Below are positions 56,121-61,634 of a DNA stretch of 61,634 nt, one piece after another. The notes under the pieces were generated by a model. It saw only the letters and a list, made by a program, of their open reading frames with translations. It was not told the origin of the DNA and did no database searches. How positions within the stretch are numbered: position 1 is the first letter of the stretch; each line of letters opens with the position of its first letter. Source of the stretch: Patescibacteria group bacterium (GTDB lineage: Bacteria; Patescibacteriota; Minisyncoccia; JAHIHE01); contig JAHILZ010000016.1 of assembly GCA_018896765.1 (NCBI GenBank), positions 1 through 61,634 on the forward strand, written 5' to 3'. A program made the translations under genes and the position numbers.

Positions 56121-56260
56121 GATTCAGTAACTTTAAACTTTTAGCTTTACCCTGTTAAATTTGTCTTGCAACTATTTAACAAGGCGCAACTTTGAATTTT
56201 GCATTTTGAACTTTGAACTATTTATAGATTGCTTCGTCGCTTCGGCTCCTCGCAATGACA
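56121..56260. repeat. left arm of perfect 140-bp inverted repeat
   Basis: Exact reverse complement of 61495-61634, verified base by base. Confidence 0.95.
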
Positions 56261-56279
56261 GAAAATTAACTATAATTTT

Positions 56280-56663
56280 ATGCTAAAACCGGATTTTCAA
56301 AAATTAAAAAAGTTTTTAATCGAAAAGGAAGATAAAATCATCCTATTGATCGGATTTGCTCTTGTCGCTTTTTTATCATACGGCGCCGGAAAATTATCCG
56401 TAGCATATCGCCCGCAAACGCCGATTATTTTTAAAGATGTTCCTGATTGCTCTGTACTAAAAGCGTCTGGTGATGCTACCACGGTTGGTTCAAGTGATAT
56501 TGCCATTACTACCGCTCAAGGCAAGATAATCGGGAACAAAAATTCTAAAATTTATCATACTCCCGGAAGCGCTTCATATAATAAGATCAACGAGGAAAAT
56601 CGGGTTTATTTCAATACGGAAGCCGATGCCCAGAAAGCGGGATATAGAAAAACTAAAATGTAG
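56280..56663 (+). CDS. membrane-anchored protein with C-terminal YH-x-PG...AGYR motif domain
   Basis: One TM helix. The C-terminus KIYHTPGSASYNKINEENRVYFNTEADAQKAGYRKTK resembles the small DNA/metal-binding 'sunset'/Ada-like module, but without the Cys ligands. Confidence 0.45.
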   Translation: MLKPDFQKLKKFLIEKEDKIILLIGFALVAFLSYGAGKLSVAYRPQTPIIFKDVPDCSVLKASGDATTVGSSDIAITTAQGKIIGNKNSKIYHTPGSASYNKINEENRVYFNTEADAQKAGYRKTKM

Positions 56664-56881
56664 TTTACCTTGTTAAATAATCCCGAATTTTCGGGATTCC
56701 GGCTTTACCGGATTTAACAGGGTCAATCTCGAAGTTATAAAGTTATAAAGTTTATTTGCATACCTCGACTTCTTCTCCGATTTTCTCTTTTAAGTATTCT
56801 TTTACTTCATTTATTCCGCCGATAATGACATAATTTTGAGTTAATTTAATTGAAATTTAAAATTATTTCCGCTAGCCGTTT

Positions 56882-58003
56882 TCATACTGATTTTAGATAT
56901 TTTTTAGTTTCCCGATCAAAATCAGACTGATAAATTTTATCTTGTATCGGACGATATTTCTCAAATTCACTTTCCGCAAAAGTTTTGGCGATTTCCGCCG
57001 TTACTTTTCCGTGATTTTGCAAAATATTCTCTTCATTAAACTTCAAAAAAACATTTAATTTTTCAGCCCAATCTTTCATAGTCATTGGAATTCCTTTTTC
57101 CGCCTGATGCTCCGCGTAGTCTAAATACATAGTCACTATGCGATTAAGCGCTTTTATTTCTTTTTGATTAAGATAATTTTTGGCGATAGAAACATCGGAT
57201 TTTAAAATCTTGCCTTCCGTCGCTTTTTTCCATGTAGTAAGCCCCATATTTTCTTTTTGATAACCGGCTCTTTTTATAATGACCTCAGCCGCAGTATTGC
57301 CATGAATGGCATAATGAAGTTTATTTTGCACAGTTGCAAAAAATGTTTTTGTGGTCAAAGAATTCAAATCATAATCCATTGCTGTCGCATAAATATCGGT
57401 TATTTGTTGATAAAAATTTCTTTCACTTTCGCGAATATCGCGAATTTCAAGGATTAAGTCTTTGAAATATTGCTTGCTCAAATAAGCTCCGTTTTTTAAC
57501 CTCACATCATCAAGAACATATCCGCGAATAGCATAATCTTTCAAAACTTGTGTCGCCCAGCGCCTAAAATCTGTCGCTCTCTCTGAATTTATCCTATAAC
57601 CAAGAGAAATGATAACTTCCAGATTATAGTGATTTGTATTATAGTTTTTTCCGTCTTTGGCAGTTATTAGGAAATTCCTAATAACTGAATTTTCATCTAA
57701 TTCTCCGCTATTAAAAATATTTTTTAAGTGTTCATTGATGGTTGGAATTTTTACATCAAAAAGTTTAGCAATGAATTTCTGCGTCAGCCAAACATTTTCA
57801 TCCGCCACCCTCACTTCAATTCCATCTTCTCCCGCTTGAGAAGTGAAAATAAGAAATTCCGCCGTGCTATTGCGAATCATTAAACTTTTTGTTTTTTGAT
57901 TATCCGGTATTTTTTCCATTTGCTTAATTTTAGCGTCGCAAGACTGGCAAAATTCATCGTTCTGTTCCAATTTTTTCCCGCATTTGTTGCAAAAAGTATT
58001 CAT
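56882..58003 (-). CDS. RhuM-family protein with N-terminal zinc ribbon
   Basis: FCNKCGKKL...FCQSCDAK ribbon, then a RhuM core (VWLTQKFIAKLFDV, INEHLKNIF, LGYRINSERATDFRRWATQVLKDY). Confidence 0.75.
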   Translation of the reverse strand: MNTFCNKCGKKLEQNDEFCQSCDAKIKQMEKIPDNQKTKSLMIRNSTAEFLIFTSQAGEDGIEVRVADENVWLTQKFIAKLFDVKIPTINEHLKNIFNSGELDENSVIRNFLITAKDGKNYNTNHYNLEVIISLGYRINSERATDFRRWATQVLKDYAIRGYVLDDVRLKNGAYLSKQYFKDLILEIRDIRESERNFYQQITDIYATAMDYDLNSLTTKTFFATVQNKLHYAIHGNTAAEVIIKRAGYQKENMGLTTWKKATEGKILKSDVSIAKNYLNQKEIKALNRIVTMYLDYAEHQAEKGIPMTMKDWAEKLNVFLKFNEENILQNHGKVTAEIAKTFAESEFEKYRPIQDKIYQSDFDRETKKYLKSV

Positions 58004-58079
58004 GGGTTTTAATTTAATTTAATTGAAATTTTTTTATTAATTGCTTTCATACTGATTTTTAAATATTTTTGACTTACTC

Positions 58080-58107
58080 TTGACAACACCCTAAATTGGA
58101 GTATAAT
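58080..58107 (+). promoter_or_regulatory. near-consensus sigma70-type promoter for candidate sRNA
   Basis: TTGACA, a 16-nt spacer, then TATAAT. Confidence 0.55.
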
Positions 58108-59734: not shown

Positions 59735-59819
59735 TATACACCTTAAATGTCAATACTCTTATTTAATAATAGTCAAAACACGGATTAATGTCAAAAATTA
59801 TTATGTGAATAACTCTATT

Positions 59820-60965
59820 TTATTCTGATTTTGTTTTCGTCTTTTTCGCGCTAAAAACCTTGAATTCTTTTTTCGTTCTTGCCTCGTAAATCTTATTTTT
59901 CTCATCCCTGCTGAAAGTCTCGACGCTTTTTCCTAATTTTTTTACGTCAACGATTAAAAATTCTTCCAGTTTCCCGATCTGTTTCAGAATTTCCATCGCC
60001 ATTTTTTCATCATAGCTGTACCGCTCCTGAAGAACTCTTGAAATATATCCTGTATCGGAAAAAATTCGGTCGATTTTTGTTTCGTCGCAATACTGATTGA
60101 TTATTTTTTGCAACTCGGCAATTCGCGAAGCTTCTTTTTTGCTTCGCTCTTTTATTTGCAAATATTCTTCCGCTATCTCTTTTATTTTTTTGTCATCGAT
60201 AGTTACTCCGCAGGCCGGCGGATTGAACTTATGGCTGAAATACGGGCAAATAGATTGAAAGCCGCACCAATCGCAAAGGGGATTGATTTGGGGAGAAAAT
60301 TTGCTTACTTTAATTTGGTCGATTGTTTCCAAAACCTTTTCCGTTGTTTCTTTTAGTTTTTCGCCGCTCTTCACGGTAGAGAGCTTCTCGCCATGGCGCA
60401 AGAAATACAAACTAAGCCGGACCGGCTTATCGGCCAAATTCGGCCATTTATTAAGCAATCCCAAGTGATACATCGCCAGCTGCATATTTTCATCCACGCT
60501 TTTTTGGGATGGAAGAGTTCTCGAAGTCTTGTAGTCAATCACTTCAAAAGTACCGTCTTTCAATTTATCGATTCGATCGATTTTTCCGGTAACAGAGTGA
60601 ATTTCTTCTTTGTCTTTAATAGGAGCTTCGAAATATGATTCCAGTCCTAAAATATGAAAATTAGCCGGATAATTTTTTTTATAATAGTCTTTTATAATTC
60701 GGACGCCTTGCTCAAAAGCAATCATTTCTTCCGACTCTGAAATATAAACATCTTTATCCCACGAACTGCTGAAAAAAGCCAGCACTTCTTCTTCGGTTGG
60801 AGGCGTTAATTTAGACGGATCATGCATCATTTGCAAAGTTTTATGGATCAATGTGCCAAAAATCGCCTCCTTGGATTTAGGACTTTTGATTTTGTCAATT
60901 TCCGAAAATTTATATTTGGCCGGACAGGTTAAAAAATTTTCAAGGGAAGAATATGAAATACGCAT
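59820..60965 (-). CDS. PD-(D/E)XK nuclease (RecB/Cas4-like, 4-Cys cluster) with C-terminal extension
   Basis: N-terminal CPAKY, core GKIDRID...VIDYKTS, then CDWCGFQSICPYF. Confidence 0.75.
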   Translation of the reverse strand: MRISYSSLENFLTCPAKYKFSEIDKIKSPKSKEAIFGTLIHKTLQMMHDPSKLTPPTEEEVLAFFSSSWDKDVYISESEEMIAFEQGVRIIKDYYKKNYPANFHILGLESYFEAPIKDKEEIHSVTGKIDRIDKLKDGTFEVIDYKTSRTLPSQKSVDENMQLAMYHLGLLNKWPNLADKPVRLSLYFLRHGEKLSTVKSGEKLKETTEKVLETIDQIKVSKFSPQINPLCDWCGFQSICPYFSHKFNPPACGVTIDDKKIKEIAEEYLQIKERSKKEASRIAELQKIINQYCDETKIDRIFSDTGYISRVLQERYSYDEKMAMEILKQIGKLEEFLIVDVKKLGKSVETFSRDEKNKIYEARTKKEFKVFSAKKTKTKSE

Positions 60966-61099
60966 ATAAATGCATTATTAATCGTATTTAAGCTTTTTAT
61001 TACATTCATTATAACCTTTAATTAACTGTTCCGCAATTGCTTAAATATGATATACTATCTATATAATTCATAACGAGAAAATTATGAGAATTTCTAACT

Positions 61100-61411
61100 A
61101 TGAGAAATTTTAATGCTCGAAAAAACAAAAAAGTTCGGCATAACAAATACTTGCAAATTGCCCAGGCGGAAATTGATTTGCATGGATTCACGAAGCAGGA
61201 AGCCGCGGAAGCGCTCAAAAATTTTATTAAAAACGCTTATGATAAAAAATACAAGCGAATACGGATTATCACCGGCAAAGGATTGCATTCTGAAAATGGT
61301 CAAAGCGTCTTGAAAGGATATGTAAAAAGCGTTTTAGAAAAAGAGGGGCTGAATTATTCGGATTCAAAAATATACGATGGCGGCAGCGGAGCGATAGATG
61401 TACAAATGTAA
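61100..61411 (+). CDS. Smr-domain protein
   Basis: IDLHGFT and IITGKGLHS motifs of the Smr/MutS2 C-terminal nuclease domain. Confidence 0.8.
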   Translation: MRNFNARKNKKVRHNKYLQIAQAEIDLHGFTKQEAAEALKNFIKNAYDKKYKRIRIITGKGLHSENGQSVLKGYVKSVLEKEGLNYSDSKIYDGGSGAIDVQM

Positions 61412-61494
61412 CGCGGCAGTGGATAAAAAATTGTTGAAAACCTTTAAATATGATAAAATATAATTAATCATTAAGAAATTTTAATATTGCTTTT

Positions 61495-61634
61495 TGTCAT
61501 TGCGAGGAGCCGAAGCGACGAAGCAATCTATAAATAGTTCAAAGTTCAAAATGCAAAATTCAAAGTTGCGCCTTGTTAAATAGTTGCAAGACAAATTTAA
61601 CAGGGTAAAGCTAAAAGTTTAAAGTTACTGAATC
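61495..61634. repeat. right arm of perfect 140-bp inverted repeat (runs to window edge)
   Basis: Exact reverse complement of 56121-56260. The true outer boundary is not visible. Confidence 0.95.

Follow-up and report, generated by a model that had tools for sequence, protein, structure and literature searches.

What does it mean when a contig ends in one arm of a perfect inverted repeat that encloses 5.2 kb of sequence? The question is raised by contig JAHILZ010000016.1 of the Patescibacteria assembly GCA_018896765.1, which is referred to here as the window and whose 61,634 bp comprise the complete contig. Positions 56121-56260 are the exact reverse complement of positions 61495-61634, and the agreement of all 140 bases, reported in an earlier sequence-only reading, was reconfirmed. 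That reading had taken the perfect identity as significant and the enclosed DNA as a nuclease-rich accessory module with the content of a mobile or defence island, possibly invertible. We arrive at a different answer. With a probability of about 0.78, what the arms show is two opposed copies of a dispersed hairpin repeat, called R in the following, cut by the assembler, and the DNA between them is mostly ordinary chromosome.

The identity of the arms breaks off at position 56261 (g versus a) on the inner side, and a repeat of 144 nt at 99% identity was discarded as a chance extension past the 140-nt match. On the outer side the right arm ends with the final base of the contig, a coincidence that the sequence-only reading had asked to be checked. 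That the window is a complete contig is borne out by the cluster of its radical SAM protein, for which the longest contig is given as 61,634 bp. The continuation is found in a contig of a sister metagenome-assembled genome (MAG), L001 (GCA_018898755.1), which is 99.7% identical over 60947-61634 and reads through the right copy. It holds 216 nt that match window positions 56264-56049 at 98.6%, and in the 72 nt past the end of the window it agrees base for base with the reverse-complemented 56049-56120. The true stretch common to both copies is accordingly about 212 bp (56049-56260), which bears out the suspicion that the repeat exceeds 140 bp. The left copy extends over 56035-56260 on the plus strand (profile positions 17-242; nhmmer E-value 2.7e-78), as judged from an alignment with 11 other copies and from BLAST matches to L001, L008, and L011-L021, and its outer terminal module is degenerate. 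Of the right copy R', on the minus strand at 61495-61634, only profile positions 103-242 are present because the contig end cuts the copy after exactly 140 nt. The two copies occupy the spacers between the radical SAM and sunset genes and between the Smr and methyltransferase genes. Profile and sequence searches revealed no further full copy elsewhere in the window.

As defined by the aligned copies, R is a non-coding element of 242 bp, and three copies have exactly this length. Its end modules are inverted (TGTCATTGCGAG-variable loop-CGAAGCAATC) and flank a core of hairpins built from AGTTnAAAG words; the terminal inverted repeats are TGTCATTGCGAG...CGAAGCAATC and GATTGCTTCG...CTCGCAATGACA. 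A full copy folds end to end with -78 kcal/mol (z = -8.3). The sole open reading frame (ORF) of at least 40 residues that overlaps the left copy is a 41-residue ORF starting with TTG (56161-56286). A 41-nt piece of the core was found on 10 contigs of the JGI metagenome 3300020171 and in one GTDB representative Patescibacteria MAG, and these copies are 91-98% identical to window positions 56039-56267. R is thus present at a minimum of 10 loci in one metagenome, for the most part beside housekeeping genes, in spacers adjoining rplA, recG, a Mur ligase gene, a Wzy-type gene, and a type I restriction-modification gene. The repeat and its family are observed directly, and the claim that the arms consist of the genome's own hairpin modules holds in the alignment. 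The family is modular. In L020, R is present as a tandem pair (683-1199), and copies in L011, L017, L019, and L028 are lengthened by a nested hairpin within the inner end module. The words of the core also appear at 20956-21007, 30378-30429, 46661-46712, and 52546-52602 of the window, and even inside the gltX gene (51923-53752, minus strand), where positions 53425-53456 encode the peptide KVQSSKFKVQS and are 90% identical to arm positions 68-99.

How notable is a perfect match between two members of such a family? The copies are 95-98% alike across loci, and those at unrelated loci differ from the arms in only three to four of 140 positions. Because the family is so uniform, 140 identical bases between two of its members are only mildly notable, and the figure of 140 was itself set by the assembler. 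The significance formerly attached to the perfect identity is therefore lost, and as evidence for gene conversion it is weak.

Searches of Rfam at gathering and E-value thresholds gave no match for R, only tRNAs and chance matches, and the core had no match on viral contigs. The R profile was also run on stretches fetched from other species (L022-L027, L029, and L030) and detected no copy, so that the family looks lineage-restricted. A full-text literature search for GTCATTGCGAG returned unrelated primers only, and nothing relevant was found on miniature inverted-repeat elements in Patescibacteria. A scan of 55.9-61.6 kb for promoters and terminators gave counts at the level of shuffled sequences, and thus we do not claim a regulatory role for R. 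Bacteria are known to contain intergenic repeats that are imperfect palindromes or resemble miniature inverted-repeat transposable elements (MITEs), for example ERIC/IRU, Correia elements, RUP, and the modular BOX and BIME/REP. R resembles these in being non-coding, intergenic, present in multiple copies, and, at 242 bp, bounded by terminal inverted modules, and also in forming a single long hairpin, in its modular insertion variants, and in the high identity between copies. It differs from them in that no target-site duplication was seen, no cognate transposase was found, there is no match in Rfam, and its host belongs to the Patescibacteria (candidate phyla radiation, CPR), for which the papers searched contain no such description. 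With MITEs it shares the short non-coding sequence, the terminal inverted repeats, and many dispersed copies in unrelated contexts; an autonomous insertion sequence (IS) with matching ends was not found nearby, where there is only a transposase relic. That relic, an IS630 remnant, can be ruled out as the mobilising partner, its 20-bp ends being unrelated to R. As neither target-site duplications nor a matching transposase were found, the term MITE-like denotes resemblance and not membership. Judged by its sequence characteristics, R is a homogeneous and seemingly lineage-restricted dispersed repeat of MITE- or ERIC-like type.

The outer end of the right arm is best understood from other assemblies. 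A stand-alone contig of 5,514 bp (L002, GCA_018902975.1) is 100% identical to 56121-61634, exactly from arm to arm, and L004 (GCA_018901385.1) ends at the base equivalent to 61634. Three contigs of three assemblies therefore share one end base, and one of them, L002, is symmetric. Contig L021, which belongs to the same accession series and species, carries the title "Patescibacteria group bacterium KR11_N3.mb.38_k141_30995". The k141 in this title points to an assembly with k = 141, and 140 equals 141-1. In addition, Logan contigs (k = 31) come to an end no more than about 30 nt from the edges of the repeat (L003 at 61522 and L007 at 56074). A shared end base together with a symmetric contig is the signature of graph unitigs that meet a common repeat. 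The length of the arm and its exact limit on the outer side are products of the assembly, and so, in large part, is the perfection of the match. Such contig ends, with unitigs overlapping by k or k-1, are typical of repeats in de Bruijn graphs, and the present case agrees with them in the contig names indicating k = 141, in the common end base, and in the arm-to-arm contig with 140-nt ends; it departs from a simple graph model in that the left copy is traversed in the window contig.

The genes between the arms had been assigned as sunset/Ada-like, RhuM, DUF3800, IS630 remnant, Cas4-like, and Smr, and Pfam, PADLOC, and NCBIfam uphold all these assignments. The left end of the segment is formed by the gene of a membrane-anchored sunset/Ada-like protein of 127 residues (56280-56663, plus strand; NCBIfam sunset, 2.6e-14). 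Its right end contains the genes of a predicted Cas4-like PD-(D/E)XK nuclease of 381 residues (59820-60965, minus strand; PDDEXK_1, 6e-36), whose counterpart in L004 is 93% identical at the protein level, and of an Smr-domain protein of 103 residues (61100-61411, plus strand; Pfam Smr, 4.5e-17). In the relatives represented by L027 and L029, the PD-(D/E)XK(+), sunset(-), and methyltransferase(+) genes are direct neighbours, followed in L029 by rpmA(+), and in L027 Smr(-) is encoded a few genes upstream. The amino acid identities to the window are 84-87% for the PD-(D/E)XK protein, 66-78% for the sunset protein, and 64% for Smr (64-66% when L023 is included), as compared to 81% for the radical SAM protein and 74-78% for the methyltransferase. 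Their presence beside the methyltransferase gene in relatives assigns the sunset, PD-(D/E)XK, and Smr genes to the conserved chromosome, and this conservation is a direct observation. Strain-variable is only the cargo of about 3.1 kb (56664-59819), which is inserted where the sunset and PD-(D/E)XK genes converge with their 3' ends. The cargo genes are absent from this position in L027 and L029, and in strain L004 a Bro-N gene is found instead. The segment as a whole is accordingly no accessory module, and although the Cas4-like protein matches the PADLOC Cas4 models at 1e-14, its gene is a conserved core neighbour.

Taken together, the locus is best explained as follows. Two opposed R copies sit in the spacers named above, and R would be spreading, or have spread, as a mobile or recombining element. 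An assembler working on a de Bruijn graph with k = 141 was probably unable to pass the second copy, so that the contig stops 140 nt (k-1) into R'. The enclosed 5.2 kb is ordinary chromosome, from the sunset gene to the PD-(D/E)XK and Smr genes, with a strain-variable 3.1-kb insert (RhuM, DUF3800, and IS630 remnant) between two convergent conserved genes, and in the genome of the window itself the right copy would presumably continue as in L001.

Several points weigh against this explanation. The DNA past position 61634 is not seen in the window's own genome, and the figure of 212 bp is taken from L001, whose arm has 2 nt changed. In the window contig the left copy is crossed and the right one is not, but L002 is cut at both, a difference for which the explanation does not account. 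Because an ENA k141 contig (L009) retains 141 and not 140 nt of R, the relation to k-1 presumes node-centred unitig output by the project's assembler version. The 10 metagenome contigs with R are not proven to share one genome. No consistent target-site duplication is apparent beside the aligned copies, and the edges of the element are blurred by the modular variants. A transposase with ends matching R was not found, the IS630 remnant being the only transposase relic nearby and the rest of the genome not having been searched. Finally, R is longer than k, and every contig crossing it could be a wrong join, including the radical SAM-R-sunset connection of the window.

If the assembler set the length of the arm, could it have created the arm altogether, by folding the contig end back onto the left copy? 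In favour of a right arm that is absent from the genome, the arm stops precisely where the contig does and is k-1 nt long. However, Smr is joined to R' in another five contigs (listed as L001-L006), each from a further sample and together derived from four sources (NCBI, Logan, JGI, and ENA), and L001 runs on through R' into unique genes. A pure artefact is therefore most improbable, and the artefactual part of the right arm is its length only. Hardly less improbable is that the 5.2 kb were acquired as a unit ending in inverted repeats, like a composite transposon or a defence island. Inverted copies do bracket the segment, RhuM (PADLOC candidate PDC-S05), DUF3800, and the IS630 remnant lie inside, and L002 looks like an independent element with inverted ends. 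Against this stand the conserved neighbourhood of the genes at both segment ends (64-87% amino acid identity), the lack of R copies in what was fetched of these relatives' genomes, and the absence of a transposase from R, whose copies occur singly beside housekeeping genes. The cargo varies within the segment, as in L004, and not together with it, and the boundaries of L002 are exactly those expected of a graph unitig. Neither foreign genes at the block ends nor a flanking transposase or integrase, as in composite transposons and islands, was found, and there is no indication of the bracketed segment being mobile as one unit. By gene content and synteny, the interpretation as a mobile or defence island appears largely refuted.

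More difficult to judge is the orientation of the segment. The window has the order radical SAM - R - sunset(+) ... PD-(D/E)XK(-) Smr(+) - R', which L001 continues as Smr(+) - R' - methyltransferase(+) - rpmA. The JGI contig L008 has the order rpmA'-methyltransferase' - R - sunset(+), which is opposite to the linkage in the window and L001, and the contigs with opposite linkages are about 99% identical to each other. L008 is collinear with the relatives L027 and L029, and hence the order in the window would be the derived one. The suggestion of an invertible segment is thus a live one since public contigs show both linkages to the right flank. The opposite linkages are due either to recombination of the two inverted R copies, which would have turned the segment round, or to a wrong join by the assembler. 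That the segment has been inverted against the ancestral order by homologous (RecA-type) recombination between R copies is conceivable, with the odds somewhat against it. At best equally tentative is the suggestion that it flips in this way, with close strains or cells of one population carrying both orientations. It would explain why the methyltransferase side is tied to the sunset end in L008 and to the Smr end in L001. Within a strain, the two copies have the same strain-specific bases (GTCTTG versus GCCTCG), and both copies carry locus-specific variants (GTAAAG and CAGTAAC) that were not seen at other loci. By these shared variants, the copy on the radical SAM side matches that on the methyltransferase side, which places the radical SAM block beside this locus. 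The within-strain agreement fits exchange between the copies but could also stem from graph collapse. With about 212 bp, R is longer than k, and therefore both orientations yield the same assembly graph and contigs crossing R carry little information. The evidence is from contigs and not at the read level, and no contig was found with the fourth junction, in which R would link radical SAM to reversed Smr; three close variants of the radical SAM gene lie on contigs outside the set that was read. Because contigs crossing R could be wrong joins, the inversion is unproven. The skew of G over C was not used as a test of orientation because it follows the coding strand here. Known chromosomal inversions between inverted IS, MITE, or rRNA-operon copies are similar in that two near-identical copies, here of about 212 bp, flank a segment whose orientation differs from the ancestral order and between contigs that are about 99% identical; they differ in that the present segment comprises only 5.2 kb and is seen in contigs and not at the read level. 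A site-specific switch, with an invertase acting on the arms, would equally account for the bracketing inverted repeat and for both linkages, as in invertons and shufflons such as fimS, hin, and the invertible promoters of Bacteroides, whose segments may also occur both ways. But in agreement with the sequence-only reading no recombinase gene is found among the ORFs of the segment, neither a serine nor a tyrosine recombinase is encoded in or next to it, and no recombinase was detected in 53-61.6 kb or in the continuation in L001. Moreover, the arms are members of a dispersed family of about 212 bp and not short dedicated sites. An inverton is thus as remote an explanation as a folded-back contig end. 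A third linkage is present in L028 (GCA_043805065.1; methyltransferase 99% identical), where the sequence upstream of R' (1-121) corresponds neither to the Smr end nor to the sunset end.

The cargo region encodes RhuM with a zinc ribbon (56882-58003, minus strand), a DUF3800 protein assigned by Pfam and NCBIfam (58211-58846, minus strand), and an orphan zinc-ribbon ORF of 46 residues (58830-58970, minus strand) that overlaps the start of the DUF3800 gene. PADLOC gave no match for the DUF3800, Smr, and sunset proteins. A direct repeat of 149 nt (81% identity; 57882-58030 and 58849-58997) spans the N-terminus of RhuM with its zinc ribbon and the upstream region; its second copy corresponds to the orphan ORF and looks like a relic of cassette replacement. 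The IS630 remnant (59050-59736) contains a 203-residue ORF (59110-59721, plus strand) that covers only the C-terminal part of DDE_3. Both ends of the remnant still carry a flawless 20-bp terminal inverted repeat of their own, with TAATACCAAATTCACCTAAT at 59050-59069 and the complement at 59717-59736. Just outside these ends is a direct repeat of 22 nt (82%; 59032-59053 and 59741-59762). All repeats of the window other than the arms had been described as degenerate, which is true for the long ones but not for the 20-nt inverted repeat that encloses the IS630 remnant and is perfect.

To the left of R, the AmmeMemoRadiSam-type radical SAM gene (54965-55984, plus strand; Pfam, with counterparts in L022-L026 and L030) is the last of a block that is syntenic with relatives and comprises the genes of ThiI, an HD protein, a C39 peptidase, GltX, WecG, and the radical SAM protein. 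Relatives with a 74-81% identical radical SAM protein retain this left-hand block and diverge to its right. The spacer between the WecG and radical SAM genes (about 54738-54836) has the look of a further dispersed repeat: L010, a contig of a sister assembly, follows the window only up to 54836 and runs for another 112 nt (L010 1-112), and the unrelated JGI contig L017 (4253-4346) matches 54738-54830 at 88%. Past the right copy, L001 encodes a UPF0020-type methyltransferase, rpmA, a PIF1 helicase, a second DUF3800 protein, and a type ISP restriction protein. In both L001 (2786-6976) and L028 (2362-5035), the PIF1-type helicase, second DUF3800, and type ISP restriction-modification genes adjoin rpmA and form a second defence-like cluster. 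The sunset/methyltransferase spacer of L029 (GCA_030693205.1), from a species whose methyltransferase is 78% identical, contains a shorter element of about 95 nt with similar ends (TGTCATTTCGA...TCGGAATGACAGAA; 1822-1952), and this spacer may be an old target for R-like repeats. On the plus strand of the window, the GC skew is consistently positive from 1 to 48 kb and negative from 49 to 61 kb; the change at about 48000-49000 may reflect a switch of the gene strand or a replication landmark.

These results leave the current understanding unchanged. For genome scans they mean that a perfect repeat at a contig edge with a length of k-1 should be read as an assembly boundary and not as a recent duplication or a mobile module. 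In annotation, the Cas4-like nuclease, Smr, and sunset-domain genes are to be treated as conserved chromosomal genes, and RhuM, DUF3800, and the IS630 remnant as cargo at a small insertion hot spot. It is an unlikely possibility that the inverted R pair constitutes a recombinase-free reversible flip whose two orientations coexist in natural Patescibacteria populations, and that R is an undescribed, recently active family reshaping very small CPR genomes. If this were true, a flip would change which genes follow the radical SAM transcription unit and which ones precede that of the methyltransferase and rpmA. What is documented is a homogeneous family of 242-bp hairpin repeats in a lineage of the Patescibacteria, at which MAG assemblies break and through which a small inversion may occur.

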